From an uncultured Gammaproteobacteria bacterium (GTDB lineage Bacteria > Patescibacteriota > Patescibacteriia > SBBC01 > CAIJZX01), in the NCBI GenBank assembly GCA_964397195.1, contig CAYNGY010000001.1:6586-70585 (forward strand): 64,000 nt of DNA, in the 5' to 3' direction. A program made the translations under genes and the position numbers. The notes under the pieces are model-generated. The model was not told the DNA's origin. It saw only the letters and a list, made by a program, of their open reading frames with translations, and made no database searches. This document shows positions 5,505 to 63,892 of the stretch, piece after piece (positions within the stretch are counted from its first letter, which is position 1; every line of letters begins with the position of its first letter).

Positions 5505-6196
5505 GAAATCCAGCCCTTCACCTTTAGTCCGGCCGTGGCGGCCGCGACCTGCGCTTCTTGTTTTGATGCGCCCTCTCCGCTCGCAATTTGTTCCGATCCA
5601 AGGTGGACAGCCACTTCGAAGTGTTTATCATGGTCCGGTCCCCACTCACGCAAAACCTTGTAGCTTGGGGTAATGCCGAAGACTTCCTGGCTCATCTCTT
5701 GGAATCGGCTTTTCGGGTCGACATACAATTCGCCCGCTAAGATGCTCGGTAACTTCGCTAGGATTCGGGCGGAAATAAACTGCTCAGCCGGAGCCAGACC
5801 GGCATCAAGATACATGGCACCGATCAGCGCCTCAATGGCGTTGGCATGGATATTCTGTCGGGCTTTTGAGGCCTTGTCTTTCGCCTCGCCGCGGCTCAGC
5901 ATCAACCACTGATCGAGATCGAGTTCTTTGGCTACTTCCGACAGGCTCTTGGCGTTGACGAGGCTGGCCCGCCAGTTTGTCAGGTCGCCTTCTTGGTTCG
6001 GATAGTTACGATACAAAAAGTCGCTGACAATTAACTCGAGGACGGCATCGCCGAGGTACTCGAGTCGTTCGTTGTGTCCGAGCGGAAACGATGGGTTCTC
6101 ATTGAGGTACGAGCGATGGACAAGCGCTTGGTTGAGCAGGTCGGGATTGATAAAGGTGTGGCCGAGTATGGACTCGAGCGCGGCGTGGTCGTTCAT
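5501..6196 (-). CDS. rnc: Ribonuclease III
   Basis: Signature HRSYLNE...ERLEYLGDAVLELIVSDFLY. C-terminal dsRBD. Confidence 0.9.
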   Translation of the reverse strand: MNDHAALESILGHTFINPDLLNQALVHRSYLNENPSFPLGHNERLEYLGDAVLELIVSDFLYRNYPNQEGDLTNWRASLVNAKSLSEVAKELDLDQWLMLSRGEAKDKASKARQNIHANAIEALIGAMYLDAGLAPAEQFISARILAKLPSILAGELYVDPKSRFQEMSQEVFGITPSYKVLREWGPDHDKHFEVAVHLGSEQIASGEGASKQEAQVAAATAGLKVKGWIS

Positions 6197-23778: not shown

Positions 23779-24444
23779 ATGGCCATCATTGAACTCACGG
23801 ATATCATTAAGTCATTCCCCGTCGGCGATGGCCAATTTCAGGCGCTCAAGAACGTCAGCCTCAACGTCAACGCCGGTGAATTTGTGGCTATCATGGGTCC
23901 CTCTGGTTCGGGAAAATCAACGCTCATGAACATTATCGGACTCCTCGACCGTCCGACCGCCGGGTCCTATCAGCTAGATGGCCAGTCGGTATCGCTGACT
24001 ATGTCCGACCGAGCTCAAGCCACTCTGCGCAGTCAATTCATCGGGTTTATTTTTCAAAACTTTAACCTGCTCGCGAATCTCTCAGTAGTTGATAATGTCG
24101 CGTTGCCGGCCGCCTATCTCGCTAAATCACAAAAACCGCGCGAGAAGGCGAAGAAATTATTAGAACGTGTTGGCCTCGGTGAGCGAATCCAATATCAGCC
24201 GAGCAAGCTTTCTGGTGGAGAGCGTCAGCGGGTGGCCATCGCACGTGCCCTGATGAACGATCCGAAAGTCATTTTGGCTGATGAACCGACCGGGAACCTT
24301 GATTCGAAATCTGGTGAGGATGTGATGAACATTCTCCTCGACCTGAACAAGTCCGGAACGACACTCCTCATGGTGACGCACAATGAAGAGCTGGCCAAGC
24401 TCGCCAACCGAACAATTCGGCTTAAGGACGGAGAAATTCTATGA
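23779..24444 (+). CDS. ABC transporter ATP-binding protein (MacB/LolD/FtsE-like)
   Basis: Walker A GPSGSGKST, signature LSGGERQR, Walker B ILADEPTGNLD. Confidence 0.9.
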   Translation: MAIIELTDIIKSFPVGDGQFQALKNVSLNVNAGEFVAIMGPSGSGKSTLMNIIGLLDRPTAGSYQLDGQSVSLTMSDRAQATLRSQFIGFIFQNFNLLANLSVVDNVALPAAYLAKSQKPREKAKKLLERVGLGERIQYQPSKLSGGERQRVAIARALMNDPKVILADEPTGNLDSKSGEDVMNILLDLNKSGTTLLMVTHNEELAKLANRTIRLKDGEIL

Positions 24445-25664
24445 TGCTGCAAGCCGCCCAAAACGCCTTTCGATCAATCTGGACGAAAAAAACCCGCTCG
24501 TTCCTGACCATGCTCGGCGTCATCATCGGCGTTGCCCAGATTATCGCTCTCATCGGATTAGGTCAGGGTGTCAAACAATCCGTGTCGGATGAAGTCACAC
24601 AGTTAGGAACGAATGTGCTGTTTGTCTTGCCCGGAAAGCTACAGGACGCCAATGGAGGTTTTAATCCTAGTGCGTCAGTTGGTGCCTCGACGCTCACCGA
24701 AGATGACTTGGCGCTCTTAAAAACGCGCCCGGAAATTACGACCATTACGCCAATCGCCTTATTGGCCGGTACACCCGCGGTTGGTGAAACGGCGGCGCTA
24801 GGAACGATGACGGTCGCGGTTGAGCCCGATTACTTTGCGGTCATGACCACGGCCGAGTTAGTCGCCGGGCGTCTCTTCACCGCCGCGGAAAATACCGCTA
24901 AGGATCGAGTCATCCTGCTCGGAAAACAACCGAAGACGGCATTGTTCCCAACGTCCACGAATGCCGAGGTTATCGGTAAAACGGTCACCATCGGCAAGGT
25001 GGCATTTACCGTTATCGGCGTGCTCGAAACGCCGCAATCAACGTCAGCCTTCGGTGGCAATTCTTTCGACAACATGGTCTTTATGCCGTACCTGACCGGG
25101 AAAGATGTAAATGAGAATACGCAAATCTTCCGGATGGTCATGAAGATAGATCCGAGTCTGAATGCGAAAGATGAGGCGAATACCATCACGGCACTGTTGA
25201 AAGCGCAACATGGGGCCGACGACTTTACGGTTTTTACTCAAGACGATCTGCTCAGCGTTGTCGACGATATTCTCGGATTAATTACCACCGCGATTGTCGG
25301 CCTCGCCTCGATCTCCCTGATCGTCGGCGGGATCGGAATTATGAACATCATGCTCGTGGCCGTCTCCGAGCGAACGAAAGAAATTGGCCTTCGGAAAGCC
25401 CTCGGCGCAACGCGGGCAAACATCCTCCTCCAATTTATTACTGAGTCGGCGTTCATTTCCTTGATTGGTGGGGCAATTGGTGTTGGTATTGTGGCGGCGA
25501 TCGGACCGATTGTTGAAGCGAAATCAGGACTTCCAATCGTCATCAACCTCCAGTCAGTGCTGATGGCCACGAGCTTCTCACTCGGCGTCGGTGTCCTGTT
25601 CGGACTTCTACCGGCCATCCGCGCCGCCCGTAAAGATCCGATCGAGGCGCTGCGCTACGAATAA
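24441..25664 (+). CDS. ABC transporter permease, FtsX/MacB type
   Basis: N-terminal TM, large periplasmic domain, C-terminal FtsX-like 3-TM bundle. Overlaps the ATPase gene by 4 nt. Confidence 0.8.
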   Translation: MMLQAAQNAFRSIWTKKTRSFLTMLGVIIGVAQIIALIGLGQGVKQSVSDEVTQLGTNVLFVLPGKLQDANGGFNPSASVGASTLTEDDLALLKTRPEITTITPIALLAGTPAVGETAALGTMTVAVEPDYFAVMTTAELVAGRLFTAAENTAKDRVILLGKQPKTALFPTSTNAEVIGKTVTIGKVAFTVIGVLETPQSTSAFGGNSFDNMVFMPYLTGKDVNENTQIFRMVMKIDPSLNAKDEANTITALLKAQHGADDFTVFTQDDLLSVVDDILGLITTAIVGLASISLIVGGIGIMNIMLVAVSERTKEIGLRKALGATRANILLQFITESAFISLIGGAIGVGIVAAIGPIVEAKSGLPIVINLQSVLMATSFSLGVGVLFGLLPAIRAARKDPIEALRYE

Positions 25665-25667
25665 TCA

Positions 25668-25704
25668 ACAATAAAATTCACCCCAACGGTTTCCCGTCGG
25701 GGTG
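25668..25704 (-). terminator. Intrinsic terminator of the RT gene
   Basis: On the minus strand, accccgacgg-GAAA-ccgttggggt 10-bp stem followed by gaattttattgtt. Confidence 0.6.
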
Positions 25705-25726
25705 GGTAGTGTCGTTGCGACACTGG

Positions 25727-26749
25727 CTAGCGCCGCTGGACGTGGGTGCGGTAGCTCGCATAGAGCTCGAGGAGCTTCTTTTCCGTAGCATTCTGGCCGA
25801 CATGACCGACTCCATGGATATAGGGCAGTGTTCCGAGGAACACGCCCATCTTGCCATGGACGACTTCCGGGCGAATGTTCGGGTCGCGCTGTGCGGCATG
25901 CAGCAGTCCGCGCAGTTTCCGAACGTACCAACGTGGTAGGAAGACGCGGCCGTGACGATCGAGGGAGATGCCGTTGATCGTAATCGGTCCGCGGTAGAGG
26001 TCGACGACCTGCGCCTTGCGGTGACTGATCTGGAACCCCGCCGTGGCGATGGTCGCGCGTATCTCGCGCCGGACTTGGTCCGTAATTCGTGCATGTCTCG
26101 AGGAGAACGTCAGGTCGTCGAGGTAGCGCGTGTACGTCAGCTCATGCTGCGTGCAGATCGTCGCCAGCTGGCGATCGAGGACCGTGGCCGCGTAGATGTT
26201 GAACAGGTCGGGCGACGACGGACTTCCCTGGACGAGCCCACGTGATCCGCGCCGGATCGGTGTGGGCGGCGCGATGGCCAGCGTTTGCTGTCGCGCGTGG
26301 CCGATCCGATAGCTCGAACCGGACACGAAGCAGTACTTCTTGAGAAACGCGTGCACGGTCTCGACGGTATCCGGTTTCGGATCGAGGCCACACAGCACGA
26401 AGGCCAAGAGTTCGTCGTCGACGTGTCCATAGGCATCGACGATGTCGAGTAGGTAGAAGTGGCGGTTGGCAAGGTAGATACCGCGCCCCTTCTGTCGCGC
26501 CGGGTACCGATGCCGCCGGACGTTATTGAGCGGCGAGCCATTCGGCCGCGCGCCAACCGCATGCGGCATCTCGACCGGCAGGGCGCGCAGTGCGCGGACA
26601 AACCGCTGGTGCAGTAGCAACATGGCCGGGTTCGGCGCCCCAATCTGGCGGTACTTCGTCGTTCCCGTCAGCGGGTTCGTGTCACGGTACCGGAAGCGCT
26701 GAAACAACGGCACTCCCGGCAGGTCGGCTAGGAATTGGTCAAAGTGCAT
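25727..26749 (-). CDS. Reverse transcriptase, retron-type (about 340 aa). The ORF track extends to 26938; the start with GGAGGA SD is at 26749.
   Basis: RT motif 1 YPARQKGRG, motif 2 YLLDIVDAYGHV, motif 4 LVQGSPSSPDLFNIYA, motif 5 RYLDDLTFSS (YxDD followed by LTFS as in retron RTs), thumb region ITINGISL. SD GGAGGA 6 nt before ATG 26749. Confidence 0.8.
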   Translation of the reverse strand: MHFDQFLADLPGVPLFQRFRYRDTNPLTGTTKYRQIGAPNPAMLLLHQRFVRALRALPVEMPHAVGARPNGSPLNNVRRHRYPARQKGRGIYLANRHFYLLDIVDAYGHVDDELLAFVLCGLDPKPDTVETVHAFLKKYCFVSGSSYRIGHARQQTLAIAPPTPIRRGSRGLVQGSPSSPDLFNIYAATVLDRQLATICTQHELTYTRYLDDLTFSSRHARITDQVRREIRATIATAGFQISHRKAQVVDLYRGPITINGISLDRHGRVFLPRWYVRKLRGLLHAAQRDPNIRPEVVHGKMGVFLGTLPYIHGVGHVGQNATEKKLLELYASYRTHVQRR

Positions 26750-26831
26750 GACGGTTCCTCCGATGTCAGGAGTTACGGGGTCGGGGAAACAGCGCCCCCA
26801 CCCTAGCAGAATGGAGAGAAAGCGCAAATCA

Positions 26832-26890
26832 TAAAAAAGACCCCAGATGTGATCCAGGGTTGCCCGTGATGGGCGGTACGAAGGTGCGGC
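26832..26890 (-). repeat. Module-terminal hairpin element, copy 1 (degenerate)
   Basis: aaaaagaccccagatgtgatccagggttgcccgtgatgggcgg is about 90% identical to copy 2 over 45 nt, but its stem is weakened. Confidence 0.5.
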
Positions 26891-27282
26891 AATCTCTGTC
26901 AGCGCTAGCCTGGGGGCGATCGCCTGAACAGACGCCAATGTTTCCGCTGAGGTTCGCGACGACCACCACGAGTCGTGTGGATACGACCGCAGGGAGGCGA
27001 ACCGGATCTAAACAGACCCAGATCAAGGAGTCGCCAGTTTGTAACGGGCAACGTCCTGCCCCGCAACGTGTGTCACGGGGGTTGTGTTCCATGGGTGGTG
27101 CTACATGCCTCATCGGACGTCTTGCCGATGTGCAGGATCACTCCCCCAGGCCTCTCCTTGTGGGCGCACCTCAAGAGGTAAAACACTCGATCAGAGCGTG
27201 ACAAGGAGCGCGAGGCCCAGCGACGGACCACGCCAGCAATGTATAGCCTTGCTCGGCCCTCGTCAATTCGGCGACCTGTGGG

Positions 27283-27345
27283 AAAAAAAGACCCCGGATG
27301 TGATCCAGGGGTGCCCGTGATGGGCGGGTGCAAATGTGGTGGCCG
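27283..27345 (-). repeat. Module-terminal hairpin element, copy 2
   Basis: aaaaaagaccccggatgtgatccaggggtgcccgtgatgggcgggtgcaaatgtgg. On the minus strand the hairpin is followed by tcttttttt. Confidence 0.5.
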
Positions 27346-27860
27346 CTGAAGTCAGCGGCGACATCCGGGGGTGTCCGCTCGGGAGACGACAGGCCGGTAC
27401 CGCTGAGGTCTGGCTGCGAATGTTGAGAAACGAGAACCAGGCGAATACCTGCGCGATCGGAGAAACCGACCAGGCCGGTACGCGCTCGCACCCACCAGGA
27501 ATCCCGTGCCGGAATCGAACACGCGAACGGACTCGCGTGTGACAACGGGCCCAGGACGGGCGTGGCTCGCGAATGCTCAACCGGATGCGACGCGCACACG
27601 AACTGCCGAAAAAATGCGCGTGCAGCCCCGACCGAGGAGAGGCCGGTCAGCAAACGAGACCGAAATGGGGTGGCTAGTACTGTCACCAACCCCGCATCAA
27701 CGACGTGCGTCATTGATGGTGTACTGCCCTCAGTGGTGCTTGAAGGTGCCCGAGTAACGTTCCCCCGGATATACCGCCCGATGCAGGCGCGGTGTCGCCA
27801 TGGGCCTATCGGCACTCTATCGGTTGCCCTCTGGCGTGTCAAACAAGATAGGAGTGGGCA

Positions 27861-27920
27861 ACCAAAAACAAAAAGACTCCCCGGCGGCGGTCCGTCGGGG
27901 GTACAAATGTGGCGCTCAGC
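27861..27920 (-). repeat. Module-terminal hairpin element, copy 3
   Basis: aaaaagactccccggcggcggtccgtcgggggtacaaatgtgg. Shares the gtRcaaatgtgg tail and the downstream agacgacRggcSggtac and ctgagg blocks with copy 2. Confidence 0.5.
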
Positions 27921-28180
27921 AGCGTTGCGGGTCCAGAGACGACGGCGGGGTACTTCAGCCCACCTCCTGAGGACTCGACGTACGAAAGAGAAAGGACGAC
28001 GAGCCCGAGATGGAATGGCTGTGACCAGCCACTCCGACGCGACAACGTGAGTTGTCGGCGTTGGGTGTTGCCTGTGCAGATCCTCAGCGGCTCCGGTGTC
28101 TTTCCCTGGACCCTCCCGCTCATCTGAGCGGTGCAACGCCGATTGGGCTACCCCGAGTCTACGGTCTCCTTCGGCGAGTG

Positions 28181-28208
28181 TCAAAAACACCCCGGATGGT
28201 CCGGGGTG
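28181..28208 (-). terminator. Intrinsic terminator of the 4-Cys membrane protein gene (same hairpin family)
   Basis: caccccgg-atggt-ccggggtg 8-bp stem followed by ttttt on the minus strand. Confidence 0.6.
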
Positions 28209-28223
28209 TTTCGTGAAGCGAGC

Positions 28224-28691
28224 TTAGACCGTCGGTGTTGAGGCCATCGGTGGCATGACCGCCGGTGTTTTTTTCCGCCACGTTTGAAACGTCGGGATCC
28301 ATGCGGCAATATAGAAGATCAGTCCATAAACGCAGGCCGGCATCGTTCCAGCGGCCAGTGCTTTCAAGACCACGATTTCATAGAACGCCAAGAACCCGGA
28401 GAACAAGACGCCGATGGTCGTGACGATAAGCGTCGCGAGGACGATGCGCTTCGCCTCGGTCTTGACCCAGGCGATCATGACGAGGATCATGGTCAACAGG
28501 AACATGAAAAAACCATAGATGCAGGTCGGTTGGCCGATGATGAGCACCTTTGTATTTCCAACGCCGCAAGACAAGAAAGCCTTCTTACAGCCTTCACCGA
28601 AATAATTCTGATAGCTCAGGTAGCCGGACATGAGGGTGCCGAGCATGGCGCTGACGAGGACCACGCGTTTGGCGGCGGACGAGAAGTTCAT
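28224..28691 (-). CDS. Four-TM membrane protein with four conserved Cys (VKOR/DsbB-like partner of DsbA?)
   Basis: Start MNFSSAAKR. Cys in GEGCKKAFLSCGVG, GQPTCIYG and MPACVYG across 4 TM helices. Two genes upstream of a DsbA-like gene. Family uncertain. Confidence 0.45.
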   Translation of the reverse strand: MNFSSAAKRVVLVSAMLGTLMSGYLSYQNYFGEGCKKAFLSCGVGNTKVLIIGQPTCIYGFFMFLLTMILVMIAWVKTEAKRIVLATLIVTTIGVLFSGFLAFYEIVVLKALAAGTMPACVYGLIFYIAAWIPTFQTWRKKTPAVMPPMASTPTV

Positions 28692-28702
28692 ACGGGTAAC
28701 GG

Positions 28703-29602
28703 TTAGGAGTGAATCGAGTGGGTAAGTGAGGAGAATGTTCGCGCCGCCGGAGCCTGATGGAAGATCTCTTGCAGTGCGTGGATGCATTCAAGCGCCGAGA
28801 GACTCGGGAAACGCTGAATGAGGAGGGCGAATGAACGGACAGATTCAGCTGATTGATCGATGGTGCCCTGGGCTAATTGTACGCCGGCATTGCGGTTTCG
28901 TGAATGGGGGCTGCCGCCGGTGCCGTGAAAGTCGTCGATACCGGCCGGACCGATGATCACCTCGCGCTCGATACCGCAACGGTCAGCGGCGACGACCATC
29001 TCATTCTCACAGCGCTTCCATAAGTCGCTCAGTGCAATTGGTGACCACCCCAATCCAACGCCCAAGCCGTAGACAAGCGCGTAAACGTTTTTCAATACGC
29101 CGGCCAAGGAGACGTCAACCGGATGGGCGCTCTCCATAAACGACATCGCTTCCGGTGGGACAATAGATTCGAGGGTTCGTCGAATCTGTCGGCCGGGACC
29201 GGCGATGACGCCATGGCCGCGTGCGCCCGAGCGAATATCTTCGGCCACCATCGGTCCGCCAATCACCACCCACGGCTGTCTCGTGCCGAGTGTTTCCGCG
29301 GCAATTTCCGCGGCGCACTGGAGCGTATGTTCCTCGAGACCTTTACTAAAGAAGACAAAGGTCGACTGCGGCGTCGCTAAGGGCTGGACATCGGCCAGGG
29401 CTTTTCGGATAGCGTCCGTCGGCACCGCGAATAAAACGAGATCTGCGTTGGGCACACCGGCACTCAGGAGGGTCACCCCGGGCGTAATCCCCGGCTGAGC
29501 GTCCCAGAGCCCAACGGTCGACTGATGACCACGCCCAAACACGTGCGCGAAGGCGCGTCCGAGCCGTCCCGCGCCAATAATGACAATTCGTGTCTGAGCC
29601 AT
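28703..29602 (-). CDS. gpsA: NAD(P)H-dependent glycerol-3-phosphate dehydrogenase
   Basis: IIGAGRLGRAFA Rossmann motif and VLKNVYALVYGLGVGLGWSPIA...LSDLWKRCENEM, which matches the GpsA C-terminal domain. Confidence 0.7.
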   Translation of the reverse strand: MAQTRIVIIGAGRLGRAFAHVFGRGHQSTVGLWDAQPGITPGVTLLSAGVPNADLVLFAVPTDAIRKALADVQPLATPQSTFVFFSKGLEEHTLQCAAEIAAETLGTRQPWVVIGGPMVAEDIRSGARGHGVIAGPGRQIRRTLESIVPPEAMSFMESAHPVDVSLAGVLKNVYALVYGLGVGLGWSPIALSDLWKRCENEMVVAADRCGIEREVIIGPAGIDDFHGTGGSPHSRNRNAGVQLAQGTIDQSAESVRSFALLIQRFPSLSALECIHALQEIFHQAPAARTFSSLTHSIHS

Positions 29603-29606
29603 GGGT

Positions 29607-30251
29607 TTATTTAGCGGCGGCCTGGACGGCCGACACCAGTTCGTCCTTGGTAAATGGAGTATTCAGTTGAACACCATTAATATAGACCGTCGGGGTCCCG
29701 GCGAGGCGAATTTGATTCCCGGTCGCCACGTCTCGCTCAATACGATCTTTGACGCCCGAGCTATTCAGGTCATCGGCAAAGGTCTTTTCGTTGAGGCCGA
29801 GCTCTTTAGCGTATGATTTTAAGGTTACCTGGACATCACCGGCGGTCGACCAGGTGGACTGCCGTTCAAACAGGATATTATGCATCTCCCAGAACTTCCC
29901 CTGGTTACTCGCCGCTTCCGAAGCCTGCGCCGCGATCTGCGCATTCGGATGCGCCTGGCGCAACGGGTAATGTCGATAGACAAAACGGGCCTGATTCCCG
30001 AGCGCTGATTCGGCGTCCTTCAGAATCGGATAGTAGTACCCGCACGCCGGACATTGAAAGTCGCTGTATTCAACGACGGTCACCGGGGCGGTCGCTTCGC
30101 CTAGGATATGATCCGTGTCAGTAATCGTCAGGGCCGCCGTCGTGGTTTCGCTTGATGGGCTGCTACCAAGATTGGCCAGGAGAACAATGAGTCCGATCGT
30201 GCCGATGATACCGCCGACCCACCAGAGGAGTGAACGTGTTTGAGCATTCAT
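29607..30251 (-). CDS. DsbA-like thiol:disulfide oxidoreductase (thioredoxin fold, membrane anchored)
   Basis: N-terminal TM and CPAC active site in FQCPACGYYYP. Confidence 0.75.
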   Translation of the reverse strand: MNAQTRSLLWWVGGIIGTIGLIVLLANLGSSPSSETTTAALTITDTDHILGEATAPVTVVEYSDFQCPACGYYYPILKDAESALGNQARFVYRHYPLRQAHPNAQIAAQASEAASNQGKFWEMHNILFERQSTWSTAGDVQVTLKSYAKELGLNEKTFADDLNSSGVKDRIERDVATGNQIRLAGTPTVYINGVQLNTPFTKDELVSAVQAAAK

Positions 30252-30265
30252 GAGATCTTTGTAAC

Positions 30266-31270
30266 TTAGTGAACAATATTTTGCGGCGTGCCATTCGTAA
30301 AGGCACGGATGTTGTCGATCGTCGTCTGGAGAATTCGTTCCAACGCCTCGCGGGTATTAAAGGCGTTGTGCGGCGTGATGATCACCCGTGGGTGCGAGAG
30401 GAGGGCGTGATCGGCCAGGAGTGTTTTCAGGTCACAGGTTTTCTTGAATTGCTCGCTGACGAGTTGTCGTTCTTCGAGAATGGCACATTCTTCTTCTAAC
30501 ACATCGAGCCCGACCCCGGCGAGGTGTCCGCGTTCAAGCACCTGCACGAGCGCTTGCGTGTCGATCAGTGTCCCGCGCGCGGTGTTAATCAAATATGCGT
30601 CCGGCTTCATCAACATCAACCGCTCTTCGTTCATGAGGTGGAGCGTGCTCGGTAACGCCGGGGCATGGAGTGAGACCACATCGCTGGTGGATAGTACCTC
30701 CTCGAGGGTTAGGTAAGTAAAGCCGAGTTCGCTGGCCAGTTTTGGATTTGGTTTGGCGTCGAAGGCGACGACGTTCATGCCGAATCCTCGGGCCATCCGA
30801 ATCGCGTGTTGTCCGATTCGGCCTGTACCAATAATGCCAAACGTTTTTCCGTGCAGGTCAACGCCGCGCAATCCATCGAGCCGAAAGTCTCCGAGGCGCG
30901 TATGGTCAACGGCCGGGACAATCTTTCGGGTCAGGGCGAGGAGTAAGGCGAAGGCTTGTTCGGCGACGGTATTCTCGCCGTACGACGGAACATTACTGAC
31001 GACAATGCCGCGCTCCGCGCAGGCGGCGAGGTCAATGTGGTCGTATCCGGTTGAAAGCGTCGCGACCATTTTCAGATTCGGCATTTTTTCGAGAACCGCT
31101 TTCGTCACCGGACTATAGATGAAGACCGTCAAAATATTCGGGTCCTTCAGATCACCGGCCGCTTCTAAATGGGCGGCCGAATACACGCCATCGCCCAGCT
31201 CTCGTTTCATGATCTCTATTTCCCATGGTTCGAGTTCAACACCGGCGAGGCGGTACGGAGGATTTGTCAT
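30266..31270 (-). CDS. D-isomer-specific 2-hydroxyacid dehydrogenase (SerA/LdhA-like)
   Basis: NAD-binding GIIGTGRIGQHAIRMARGFGMNVVAFD and catalytic R/E/H region (ITPHNAF). Confidence 0.85.
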   Translation of the reverse strand: MTNPPYRLAGVELEPWEIEIMKRELGDGVYSAAHLEAAGDLKDPNILTVFIYSPVTKAVLEKMPNLKMVATLSTGYDHIDLAACAERGIVVSNVPSYGENTVAEQAFALLLALTRKIVPAVDHTRLGDFRLDGLRGVDLHGKTFGIIGTGRIGQHAIRMARGFGMNVVAFDAKPNPKLASELGFTYLTLEEVLSTSDVVSLHAPALPSTLHLMNEERLMLMKPDAYLINTARGTLIDTQALVQVLERGHLAGVGLDVLEEECAILEERQLVSEQFKKTCDLKTLLADHALLSHPRVIITPHNAFNTREALERILQTTIDNIRAFTNGTPQNIVH

Positions 31271-31545
31271 ACGCGTTTATATACGTCAATGAGTTCGTTG
31301 GTTACTGTATCACCTTTTCCGACTTTTATGTCACGGGCGACGCAGATGGTGAGGTGCTGTCGGATCATCTCCTCGTCAAAGTTCTTGAGGGCCGATTGAA
31401 TCGCCTGTGACTGGTGGACGATATCGATGCAGTTCGCGCCCTCATCCACCATCCGTCGCACCTTCCGCAAGTGCCCTTCGATGATGGCGAGGCGGTGCCC
31501 GACCGACTTTCGCTTATCATTTCCTAAGGTTTTCATATGATACAC
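31267..31545 (-). CDS. csoR: CsoR/RcnR family metal-sensing transcriptional repressor
   Basis: HRLAIIEGHLRKVRRMV...CIDIVHQSQAIQSAL...HL is the CsoR fingerprint with Cys/His ligands; 92 aa. Confidence 0.7.
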   Translation of the reverse strand: MYHMKTLGNDKRKSVGHRLAIIEGHLRKVRRMVDEGANCIDIVHQSQAIQSALKNFDEEMIRQHLTICVARDIKVGKGDTVTNELIDVYKRV

Positions 31546-47281: not shown

Positions 47282-47368
47282 TGGTGCGGACGAGAGGACT
47301 CGAACCTCCAAGCCCTTGCGGGCATCAGCCCCTCAAGCTGACGCGTATACCAGTTCCGCCACGTCCGC
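47282..47368 (-). tRNA. tRNA-Leu, anticodon GAG (class II, long variable arm)
   Basis: On the minus strand: acceptor gcggacg/cgtccgc, 3-bp D-stem, anticodon stem tcagc/gctga with loop ttGAGgg, variable hairpin gccc-gcaa-gggc, T-arm ggagg-ttcgagt-cctct, CCA. Confidence 0.75.
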
Positions 47369-47571
47369 CCCATTTCGACACGAAGAATAGATGTATATGT
47401 TCAACTCCGGTGCTGGCCGCGTTCCGTGCCCCCTAGTTCGGGATTCGGCCACGTCCGCGGATACTGATGCGGGCGGATTATCGCAGGTTCTTGGATTTTT
47501 GACAAGGGCTTTTTACGAGGCGCCGCTTGTTTTTCTTGAGAAATACTAGTAGAATACGCCCGCCCAGACCA

Positions 47572-47648
47572 TGGGCGCGTAGCTCAGTTGGTTAGAGCGA
47601 CTCGTTTACACCGAGTAGGTCAGGGGTCCGAATCCCTTCGCGCCCACC
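47572..47648 (+). tRNA. tRNA-Val, anticodon UAC
   Basis: Acceptor gggcgcg/cgcgccc, anticodon stem actcg/cgagt with loop ttTACac, T-arm agggg-tccgaat-ccctt, CCA. Promoter TTGTTT-17-TAGAAT at 47526-47554. Confidence 0.8.
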
Positions 47649-47709
47649 AGGCAGGAAACGAACGGAGCGTTATTCCTTCGTGCGCACGAAGGCATGATAC
47701 AATACCACT

Positions 47710-47952
47710 ATGGCATTCTTCATCGGATTACTCGTCATCGCTGTCGGCGTCTTCATGATTATGAAGACGGAATGGATCGTCAGTTTTACTGGCCCGATTG
47801 ATTGGGCGGAGCAACACATGGGGACCGAAGGCGGGACGCGGATGTTTATTAAACTGCTCGGCGTCGTGATCATCATCGGTGCCTTCCTAGCCGCAACGGG
47901 GTTGCTCGGTGATTGGGTGCGGGCTATCTTCGCACCGGGATTACAAATATAG
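47710..47952 (+). CDS. Small two-TM membrane protein
   Basis: 80 aa with two hydrophobic helices. Located between tRNA genes. Confidence 0.35.
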   Translation: MAFFIGLLVIAVGVFMIMKTEWIVSFTGPIDWAEQHMGTEGGTRMFIKLLGVVIIIGAFLAATGLLGDWVRAIFAPGLQI

Positions 47953-48032
47953 AGATCGTCGGTCCGCAACTCCGAAGTTCCACGTTCGATCGCGCTTTTA
48001 CAAAATACAAACCGTGATTCTATATTTTTGAA

Positions 48033-48108
48033 GGGCTGTTAGCTCATTTGGTAGAGCGCCGCGTTTGCAACGCGGAGGTGACCGGTTCGAGCCCGGTACA
48101 GTCCACCA
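48033..48108 (+). tRNA. tRNA-Ala, anticodon UGC
   Basis: Acceptor gggctgt/acagtcc including a G3:U70 pair (the Ala identity element), anticodon stem ccgcg/cgcgg with loop ttTGCaa, T-arm accgg-ttcgagc-ccggt, CCA. Confidence 0.85.
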
Positions 48109-49597: not shown

Positions 49598-49673
49598 GTG
49601 GTGACCCGCGGTGGACTCGAACCACCAACCCATTGCTTAAGAGGCAATTGCTCTACCATTGAGCTAGCGGGCC
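49598..49673 (-). tRNA. tRNA-Lys, anticodon CUU
   Basis: On the minus strand: acceptor ggcccgc/gcgggtc, anticodon stem attgc/gcaat with loop ctCTTaa, T-arm ggtgg-ttcgagt-ccacc, CCA. Confidence 0.8.
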
Positions 49674-49719
49674 ACGAACTGAGGATGAATGCCTCGTCAT
49701 TTGAGGCGACAACCCCGCC

Positions 49720-49794
49720 TGGTGCCTGGGATCAGAATCGAACTGATGACGCCAGCCTCTTCAGGGCTGCGCTCTACCACTGAGCTACCCAGGC
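49720..49794 (-). tRNA. tRNA-Phe, anticodon GAA
   Basis: On the minus strand: acceptor gcctggg/cccaggc, anticodon stem cagcc/ggctg with loop ctGAAga, T-arm atcag-ttcgatt-ctgat, CCA. Confidence 0.8.
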
Positions 49795-63522: not shown

Positions 63523-63597
63523 GCCCCCGTAGCTCAACGGATAGAGCGGTCCCGTCCTAAGGGAATGATAGAGGTTCAATTCCTTTCGGGGGCACCA
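63523..63597 (+). tRNA. tRNA-Arg, anticodon CCU
   Basis: Acceptor gcccccg/cgggggc, 4-bp anticodon stem tccc/ggga with loop gtCCTaa (an unusual G32), T-arm agagg-ttcaatt-ccttt, CCA. Confidence 0.65.
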
Positions 63598-63598
63598 A

Positions 63599-63674
63599 GG
63601 GCCCTTAGCTCATTTGGTAGAGCGCTTCCATGGCATGGAAGAGGTAAGGAGTTCGATTCTCCTAGGGTCCACCA
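63599..63674 (+). tRNA. tRNA-Ala, anticodon GGC
   Basis: Acceptor gggccct/agggtcc with G3:U70, anticodon stem cttcc/ggaag with loop atGGCat, T-arm aggag-ttcgatt-ctcct, CCA. 1 nt after tRNA-Arg. Confidence 0.8.
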
Positions 63675-63690
63675 GACCTAGATTAGCAAG

Positions 63691-63811
63691 ATGTTCCTCG
63701 AGGAACATCTGAATAAAGGAAATGTTCCGCGAGGAACAATTGAAAATACACGAAGAACATATGTTCCTCGGGGAACATATGTAAATTGTCGAATGTTCCG
63801 CGAGGAACATT
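63691..63811. repeat. Array of four palindromes TGTTCC-N4-GGAACA, resembling parS sites
   Basis: ATGTTCCTCGAGGAACAT (63691-63708), AATGTTCCGCGAGGAACAATT (63721-63741), ATATGTTCCTCGGGGAACATAT (63759-63780), AATGTTCCGCGAGGAACATT (63792-63811). Confidence 0.55.
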
Positions 63812-63816
63812 GGCTT

Positions 63817-63892
63817 GGGCCTGTAGCTCATTTGGTAGAGCGCTGCATTCGCATTGCAGAGGTAAGGGGTTCGATTCCCCTCAGGTCCACCA
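63817..63892 (+). tRNA. tRNA-Ala, anticodon CGC
   Basis: Acceptor gggcctg/caggtcc with G3:U70, anticodon stem ctgca/tgcag with loop ttCGCat, T-arm agggg-ttcgatt-cccct, CCA. Confidence 0.8.

Follow-up and report, generated by a model that had tools for sequence, protein, structure and literature searches.

A standalone retron-type reverse transcriptase and a conserved family of structured RNAs encoded beside it in Patescibacteria

Organization of the locus

The DNA studied here, referred to throughout as the window, is a stretch of 64,000 nucleotides from contig CAYNGY010000001.1 (assembly GCA_964397195.1, positions 6,586 to 70,585 of the forward strand) of an uncultured bacterium that is deposited as a gammaproteobacterium and assigned to the Patescibacteriota in GTDB. 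Its minus strand carries a gene for a reverse transcriptase (RT) and, upstream of it, a gap in which we found three predicted non-coding RNA (ncRNA) genes; this RT–ncRNA cassette is the subject of the present work. An initial annotation of the locus had described the RT open reading frame (ORF), its motifs, its Shine-Dalgarno sequence and a GAAA-loop terminator, and all of these coordinates and features were correct on checking. The convergent ABC exporter that it placed next to the RT gene was recognized by its ABC_tran and MacB_PCD+FtsX domains, and the next minus-strand gene, said to lie behind its own terminator, was found to encode a VKOR-family protein with such a hairpin. The features of the locus are as follows.

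23779..25664, ABC exporter (MacB-type) convergent with the RT gene: ABC_tran protein at 23779..24444, MacB_PCD+FtsX protein at 24441..25664
25668..28185, minus strand, whole cassette (three ncRNA genes, RT gene and terminator), absent from the close relative L105
25679..25704, minus strand, intrinsic terminator 3' of the RT gene, from the terminator scan: 11-bp hairpin (8 GC pairs), GAAA loop, T-rich tail
25727..26749, minus strand, RT ORF of 340 aa, intact, ATG at 26749
26757..26761, minus strand, Shine-Dalgarno sequence GGAGG of the RT gene, 7 nt 5' of the ATG, read from the sequence
26833..27231, minus strand, ncRNA gene C, ~400 nt; terminator 26860..26833, 84 nt 5' of the RT start
27238..27266, minus strand, promoter-like site of ncRNA C, TTGACG-17-TACATT, 9/12 consensus positions
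27171..28190, minus strand, 339-aa ORF called as a hypothetical protein in the public assembly (L001 274-1293), spanning ncRNA units A and B
27283..27807, minus strand, ncRNA gene B, ~525 nt, with a ~250-nt insertion in the hairpin termed Pc below; terminator 27310..27283
27814..27842, minus strand, promoter-like site of ncRNA B, TTGACA-17-TAGAGT, 10/12 consensus positions
27864..28149, minus strand, ncRNA gene A, ~286 nt from predicted start to terminator
28156..28184, minus strand, promoter-like site of ncRNA A, TTGACA-17-TAGACT, 10/12 consensus positions; its -35 element overlaps the T-tail of the VKOR terminator
28224..28787, minus strand, VKOR-family protein, the next minus-strand gene; own hairpin terminator 28211..28185

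Scanning the gap for promoters and terminators gave three sigma-70-like sites on the minus strand, with -35 hexamers starting at 28184, 27842 and 27266, and a hairpin followed by a T-tract was found 290-525 nt downstream of each. The gap had been annotated as a single extended structured non-coding region of about 1.4 kb; it is indeed structured, the units folding better than shuffled sequences (z from -2.9 to -5.3; minimum free energy (MFE) z = -4.17 for unit A and -3.04 for unit C), but in place of one long RNA it contains three promoter-to-terminator genes of ~290, 525 and 400 nt. Units A, B and C are alike in structure and not in sequence.

Relationship of the RT to known families

The RT ORF matched RVT_1 of Pfam at 2.8e-15 and contains the motifs QGSPSSP, YTRYLDDLTFSS (which includes RYLDDLTFSS) and ITINGISL. 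A search of 5.8 billion proteins returned ~90 full-length relatives (283-432 aa, 30-51% identity) together with a few shorter fragments, and an exhaustive profile search put the size of the family at 618 cluster representatives (50% identity) at E <= 1e-30. The few relatives that carried a lineage name in the protein search were from Parcubacteria, and 21 of the 23 family loci in the genome collection are labelled as Patescibacteria or candidate phyla radiation (CPR) bacteria (Kerfeld-, Parcu-, Sacchari-, Zambryski-, Harrison-, Campbell-, Berkel- and Andersenbacteria, Paceibacterota), the remaining two being labelled only 'bacterium'. This assignment to Patescibacteria is based on the genome and named matches, the metagenome contigs that encode family members being without taxonomy. 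For the window itself, the named relatives of a neighbouring housekeeping gene were Patescibacteria and Kerfeldbacteria.

Among 38 family members the YxDD box and 14 other positions are invariant. When the family profile was compared with the PDB, the matches to the Ec83 (1e-34) and Ec86 (7e-33) retron RTs extended over nearly the full length, and all retron RTs fell between 1e-34 and 2e-21, compared with 3e-11 for a group II RT and 5e-8 for DRT2. The AlphaFold (AF2) model of the RT had a predicted local distance difference test score (pLDDT) of 91, and its best 18 Foldseek matches were all retron RTs (template modelling scores 0.52-0.66 query-normalised and 0.33-0.72 target-normalised), DRT9 being at rank 28. 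Retron RTs are marked by a region X with the sequence NAXXH, in which H is most conserved, and a region Y with the sequence VTG, in which G is most conserved (PMC7736814). Both are present in the family as N[AV]xxH (the NVxRH form), with N76 at least 90% conserved and H80 invariant, and I[NT]G, with G260 invariant; the two regions align with NAxxH and VTG of Ec83 and Ec86, the A and V residues themselves being replaced.

The best PADLOC matches of the family were retron RT models, with no model of the unknown group (UG) or defence-associated RT (DRT) kind among the best. None of the 13 retron types provided a home, as 38 of 38 members matched nearly all PADLOC retron RT models similarly and moderately (best 3e-39). 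With NCBIfam, the scores were 75 bits for retron_St85_RT (cut-off 235), 35 bits for Drt2 (cut-off 390) and 32 bits for the group II model TIGR04416 (cut-off 300). Profile searches gave no maturase or endonuclease domain in the RT, and the family (~300 aa) has RVT_1 only. These comparisons by profile and predicted fold indicate that the window RT is an intact retron-type enzyme belonging to the retron class in a broad sense and lying outside the 13 types. The earlier suggestion of a retron-type rather than a group II intron or diversity-generating retroelement (DGR) RT is borne out by the PDB profile matches and by the top 18 structural matches alike.

The window RT and its nearest relatives, P0002 and P0003, share two lineage-specific insertions at residues ~82-95 and ~147-166 (~26465-26506 and ~26252-26311 in the DNA), the second of which is predicted to be disordered (pLDDT < 50).

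Structure and covariation of the ncRNA family

With blastn, the upstream region gave no match in 29 related loci. Rfam, searched at E <= 1 over 24000..30000 and at gathering score over the 64-kb window, gave neither group II intron RNA nor any other family apart from tRNAs, which alone reached gathering score in the window, and a chance snoRNA-like match. The likeness among related units is one of structure and short motifs only. In order, the RNA comprises the 5' strand of helix P1, the box ACAGCYCC-(Y)UGAGG (Box1), hairpin Pa with a YCAW-type loop, RGG(G), hairpin Pb, hairpin Pc, the hub UCAGCG, the small hairpin Pe, the 3' strand of P1 and CGCUGA. Pc is 24-285 nt long, is closed by GGUUC/GAACC and carries a C/U-rich tract. 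The hub pairs with the CGCUGA 3' of P1 to form helix Pd, and because P1 and Pd cross, the core of the RNA is a pseudoknot. In the window, the following elements were located.

28104..28113, minus strand, unit A, P1 5' strand GGGUCCAGGG, pairing with 27929..27938 (CUCUGGACCC); predicted in the MFE fold
27762..27772, minus strand, unit B, P1 5' strand AUAUCCGGGGG, pairing with 27361..27371
27143..27152, minus strand, unit C, P1 5' strand GGCCUGGGGG, pairing with 26907..26916
27971..28006, minus strand, unit A, Pc hairpin with the C/U-rich loop UCCUUUCUCUUUC at 27980-27992
26951..27003, minus strand, unit C, Pc hairpin (GGUUCGC...GCGAACC), adjoining the hub UCAGCG at 26950

R2, the covariance model built for the 5' domain, gave 67 matches. 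It matched unit A at 28010..28091 (26.5 bits), unit C at 27031..27110 (29.2 bits) and unit B, which was outside the R2 seed, at 27666..27748 (17.5 bits, E = 0.009). The 3'-domain model (R1) matched unit B at 27348..27415 (24.6 bits) and unit C at 26895..26959 (32.3 bits) and misses unit A because the hub of that unit has diverged to UCAGGA. With filters off, R1 and R2 matched units A, B and C and nothing else in the 64-kb window.

RNAalifold applied to an unguided alignment recovered Pa, with compensatory changes in 8 of 9 pairs, and Pd. On the R2 alignment, which is fitted to the model, all 16 pairs of Pa and Pb showed compensatory changes, 91% of cells were paired and the covariation score was 0.73, compared with at most 0.17 when the partners were slid. 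In a sequence-only alignment of eight units from the subclade with RNA downstream of the RT (see below), the full structure (P1, Pa, Pb, Pc and Pe plus the crossing Pd) was 92.5% paired versus 37-49% in slid controls, with 14 compensatory pairs versus at most 4, and none of 500 shuffles reached the observed value. Pd is near-invariant in most units and has compensatory variants in divergent members (UUCGGCG/CGCCGAA, UCAAUG/CAUUGA and UUAGCGG/CCGCUA).

P1 was found in 33 of 33 units as a helix of 10-21 bp whose sequence is entirely different in each lineage. In 31 of the 33, the 5' domain follows it at a distance of 32 nt or less, and the first search, covering 36 units, placed the end of its 3' strand at most 3 nt from CGCUGA in 33 of them. 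P1 was judged by shuffle controls and by the subclade alignment, the whole-unit MAFFT alignment (A4) having put it out of register. With position constraints the mean z was 3.6, and 139 of 6600 shuffles (2.1%) reached the observed score; in the unconstrained search the background expected by chance is high (79 of 1440 shuffles reaching the observed score), and units B and C were individually not significant in it. A further pairing, P2 (Box1 UGAGG:CCUCA), competes with Pd and Pc for the hub strand and is 55% paired on A4; as an alternative pairing it is weakly supported by class-level changes. The C/U-rich tract (8-23 nt, e.g. CUUUUCUUCUC) lies ~10-17 nt after Pb in most units and occupies the apical loop of Pc in compact ones; it may act as a template, as a site of protein binding or as a triplex strand. 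On these data, the ncRNA family is real, conserved, covarying and absent from Rfam.

The hub UCAGCG resembles UUAGCG, which we take to be the sequence around the branching G of Ec86. The G of the hub as a retron-like branching G was weakened as a candidate by the covariation of Pd as a helix and by the replacement of this G in L033.

The 3' ends of units B and C (27284..27327 and 26833..26876), each comprising a small hairpin and the terminator, are 95% identical over 44 nt, as confirmed by blastn, and beyond them the two units have only a common structure. The same is seen in units K2 and K3 of L002. The identity of B and C at this point suggests gene conversion or a shared functional 3' module.

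Association of the RNA with the RT

R2 matches of at least 18 bits lie beside the RT in 44 of 92 family loci, and all but one are on the RT strand. The RNA partner proposed for the RT is real and conserved. The RNA is exclusively upstream in 30 loci, 38-1166 nt before the RT start, and exclusively downstream in 13, 23-430 nt after the RT stop; a single locus has it on either side. The distance from the end of the RNA to the RT start codon is 60-85 nt in many loci. Beside outgroup RTs, R2 gave no match and R1 only weak ones, which in L027 lie more than 3 kb from the RT.

Among relatives on long contigs, the closest is the Kerfeldbacteria metagenome-assembled genome (MAG) locus L002 (RT identity 49-50%), which is laid out in the same way and has three units plus a partial fourth. 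The partial unit is a 5' domain (Pa and Pb; 5886-5953, 19.9 bits) inside the 5' untranslated region of the RT gene, and a hub-like UCAGUG stands beside the ribosome-binding site.

Loci with downstream RNA are L009, L041, L056, L059, L060, L061, L067, L068, L072-L075 and L085. In this subclade the 5' domain begins 23-76 nt after the RT stop (430 nt in L041) and the P1 helix is GGGUUUGGGA/UCCCAAACCC. Of the R2 matches above 20 bits, only that in L015 (5822-5896, minus strand, 23.3 bits) is opposite in strand to the RT; it lies ~50 nt upstream of the RT start and could represent an inverted unit or a palindromic hairpin arising by chance.

Coding content around the RT gene

The genomic context differs in each of 24 RT loci. 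When ORFs of at least 90 aa were clustered over ~5 kb around the RT start and to ~6 kb past it in these loci, no protein family other than the RT recurred. The only long ORF of the gap, the 339-aa ORF at 27171..28190, had no Pfam match and no homologue but itself among 5.8 billion proteins, runs over two predicted terminators and two promoters, and has no related ORF in the equivalent regions of L002 and other loci. Long chance ORFs arise in GC-rich sequence, and the 339-aa ORF is almost certainly such a chance ORF in GC-rich RNA genes. The RT is standalone, as had been proposed, and the region upstream of it holds neither a conserved protein nor a housekeeping ncRNA known to Rfam.

The cassette as an insertion at a variable site

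In the close relative L105, the VKOR and MacB genes are convergent and are separated by 38 nt with a single terminator, where the window has 2.5 kb. The neighbouring dehydrogenase (2-Hacid_dh) of L105 is 82% identical, and gene order is kept except for a copper-ATPase gene. Because VKOR and MacB are only 38 nt apart in this relative, the cassette is an insertion/deletion polymorphism with nearly the coordinates given in the initial annotation: it runs from the T-tail of the orthologous terminator (~28185) to just short of the MacB stop codon (~25668). Its GC content is 0.60-0.65, compared with 0.51-0.55 in the flanks, and no match to phage DNA was found for it. In the more distant relatives L107 and L108, the VKOR-MacB junction holds other cargo. 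These results show that the junction is a variable spot in this lineage and that the cassette is accessory. The RT had been described as placed among housekeeping genes, but the cassette is an insertion-type polymorphism at a variable spot and does not simply sit among such genes.

The cargo lies at 14991-17384 in L107 and at 8090-11330 in L108. One of the two junctions carries an HD-domain protein and two unknown proteins, the other a dihydroorotate dehydrogenase and a bpMoxR AAA ATPase (a predicted conflict system).

Comparison with described RT–ncRNA systems

Retrons consist of an RT, an msr-msd ncRNA and an effector, and 13 types have been distinguished (Mestre et al. 2020, PMC7736814). 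The system of the window is like them in the profile and fold of its RT, which has regions X (NxxxH) and Y (xxG) and comprises ~300 aa without an extra domain, and in the adjacent structured ncRNA on the same strand with its long-range closing helix, short conserved hairpins and one hairpin of variable length. It differs from them in that there is neither an effector gene nor a fused effector domain, that the RT falls in none of the 13 types, that the RNA lacks a conserved branching G and forms a pseudoknot through a 3' strand lying outside its terminal helix, that it can be downstream of the RT, has its own promoter and terminator and occurs in arrays of two or three (plus a partial fourth), and that the genome and named matches of the family are only Patescibacteria or MAGs labelled 'bacterium'. 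P1 may be the equivalent of the a1/a2 inverted repeats that enclose a contiguous msr-msd, but the conserved CGCUGA lies 3' of it and pairs back inside as Pd. Among retron ncRNAs, we know of no pseudoknot, downstream position, own promoters and terminators or tandem arrays. Of the retron properties that were tested, the system lacks three: type membership, a branching G and an effector.

DRT2 reportedly couples a UG2 RT with an upstream ncRNA from which rolling-circle cDNA encoding the protein Neo is made. It shares with the window a standalone RT, a highly structured upstream ncRNA and the lack of a protein effector in the locus, but the window RT is not of the UG2 group (35 bits with Drt2 versus a cut-off of 390; PDB match 5e-8). 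A DRT2-like endless ORF was rejected, since in nearly all units of the window family all frames of the repeat unit from Box1 to Pd, the one choice of template boundary that was made, contain stops and leave no stop-free concatemer frame. DRT9 comprises a UG28 RT and an ncRNA with a U-tract and makes protein-primed poly-dA (PMC12483538); the combination of a standalone RT and an ncRNA with a pyrimidine-rich tract in a loop is similar, whereas the window RT is of retron type and its tract is mixed C/U and variable. UG38, which belongs to UG/Abi class 2 and was reported as a small group from Parcubacteria and Nealsonbacteria (PMC9226505), is likewise an uncharacterised group of standalone RTs from CPR genomes; it has been placed in UG/Abi, whereas the window family scores as retron-type, UG38 having been compared by its published description. 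In the literature searched for retrons or RT–ncRNA systems in CPR bacteria, UG38 was the only mention found.

We conclude that this is an RT–RNA pair for which we found no prior description, with an RT of the retron class in the broad sense and appreciable room for something more distinct. Standalone RT–ncRNA systems of the UG/Abi branch such as DRT2 and DRT9 have recently revealed unexpected uses of reverse transcription, and the present family places a minimal RT–ncRNA architecture on the retron branch, where an effector protein has until now been regarded as an integral part. To our knowledge, few defence mechanisms have been described for Patescibacteria. The module offers a compact RT (~300 aa), a defined RNA scaffold supported by covariation and natural multi-template arrays; should cDNA be made, it would reveal the action of a retron-type RT in the absence of a toxin, and the module could serve as a small multiplexable tool for producing single-stranded DNA.

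Interpretation of the cassette

With moderate confidence, we read the cassette as an effector-less, retron-derived and horizontally acquired RT–ncRNA module, in which the RT is accompanied by its cognate RNA in the form of three independently transcribed paralogous genes. By analogy with the workings of retrons and of DRT2 and DRT9 (PMC7736814; PMC9226505; PMC12483538), the RT would bind the conserved scaffold made up of Pa, Pb, the UCAGCG hub and the P1/Pd pseudoknot and would copy a variable portion of every RNA to give a small cDNA or an RNA-DNA hybrid. As the units share the scaffold and differ in P1, Pc and Pe, three different products would be expected, and because no toxin is present, the RT-RNA-cDNA complex or the nucleic-acid product itself may be the output. 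Judged by its context, the function would most likely be an accessory role in defence or conflict. Several observations weigh against this interpretation. Known retrons need an effector, and no characterised precedent of an effector-less retron-type system was found in the literature. The promoters and terminators of the units are consensus matches only, and half of the related loci, mostly those with more distant RTs, have no model match. The P1 helices of units B and C are individually marginal, 10 of 200 and 6 of 200 shuffles reaching the observed score in the constrained test. Furthermore, the nucleotides behind the P1 5' strand contain no G that is conserved at a fixed offset, which a retron branching G would call for, and the hub G is not invariant. 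A more far-reaching version, which we put forward tentatively as a possibility, is that these modules form a distinct RT–RNA class, in which a retron-descended RT without a protein effector acts on one to three independently transcribed, pseudoknotted template RNAs and a product other than multicopy single-stranded DNA (msDNA) is the output in these ultra-small CPR bacteria; such a product could be, for example, unbranched or repetitive purine-rich DNA, or several cDNAs from one enzyme.

Among the alternatives, an ordinary retron making branched msDNA, its effector being encoded elsewhere, supplied by the host or lost, would equate P1 with a1/a2, Pa and Pb with the msr stem-loops and Pc with the msd hairpin. 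The hallmarks of retron RTs, a terminal long-range helix that, as in msr-msd (PMC7736814), encloses short conserved hairpins and then one whose length varies greatly, and the RNA ending 60-85 nt before the RT start in many loci, like an msr-msd-ret operon, are in line with it. We nevertheless consider it unlikely, given that a conserved branching G is missing after P1, that an extra conserved 3' strand, CGCUGA, outside P1 forms a pseudoknot, that the RNA is downstream of the RT in 13 loci and occurs as tandem arrays of units with own promoters and terminators, and that no type fits and no effector is conserved in 24 loci. About equally low is the probability that we assign to a repeat-adding polymerase of the DRT9 or telomerase type, in which reiterative copying of the C/U tract of Pc would yield long purine-rich DNA acting as a toxic or sequestering effector. 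This would explain the absence of an effector gene, the tract is present after Pb in most units and in the Pc apical loop of compact ones, and in DRT9 a standalone RT with an upstream ncRNA uses a conserved U-tract to template poly-dA (PMC12483538); however, the window RT is retron-type and not UG28, and the C/U tract differs between units in sequence and length, is in part base-paired in some of them, is short in units B and C of the window and, by run length alone, is not significant in many units.

We regard it as improbable that the RNAs, instead of being RT templates, act in cis as regulatory leaders or attenuators or work as independent small RNAs. The mutually exclusive pairings of the hub (P2, UGAGG:CCUCA, versus Pd, UCAGCG:CGCUGA) are switch-like, and read-through at the unit C terminator, 84 nt before the RT start, could set the level of RT; against this reading, 13 loci have the RNA downstream of the RT, units A and B would each be transcribed on their own and lie far from the RT start, the RNA was never found away from the RT clade in the sequence searched, and adjacent ncRNAs serve as templates in other standalone RTs (PMC9226505; PMC12483538). 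Still less probable is a mobile or mutagenic retroelement, whether as the remnant of a group II intron, as a DGR or as a cassette that retrotransposes itself. The insertion-type polymorphism with its deviant GC content and the tandem duplication of the ncRNA would fit such an element, but neither group II intron RNA domains nor any other Rfam family were found, the group II RT profile scores far below the retron profiles, and there is no maturase or endonuclease domain, no pair of template and variable repeats in the window and no phage DNA match. A DGR was rejected on the finding that, except for the B and C 3' ends, no part of 26750..28215 has a second copy in the 64-kb window. Moreover, the three units are not recent retro-copies, because they are alike in structure but not in sequence. 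To the last alternative, an upstream protein effector in the form of the 339-aa ORF, we give almost no credence: it is called as a gene in the public assembly and is open for 339 codons, and against it stand the lack of a Pfam match and of any homologue, its course across terminators and promoters and the absence of a related ORF in L002 and other loci.

Other features of the window

In three relatives, a P-type copper ATPase (HMA + E1-E2_ATPase) is encoded between the 2-hydroxyacid dehydrogenase and DsbA (e.g. L105 11011-13308); it is missing from the window at ~30251-30266. By comparison, a candidate for the window counterpart of the metal-sensing repressor of L105 (Trns_repr_metal) lies at 31267-31545 on the minus strand. 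Ten tRNA genes are present at 36307-63892, including pairs or triplets at 47282-48108, 49599-49794 and 63523-63892.

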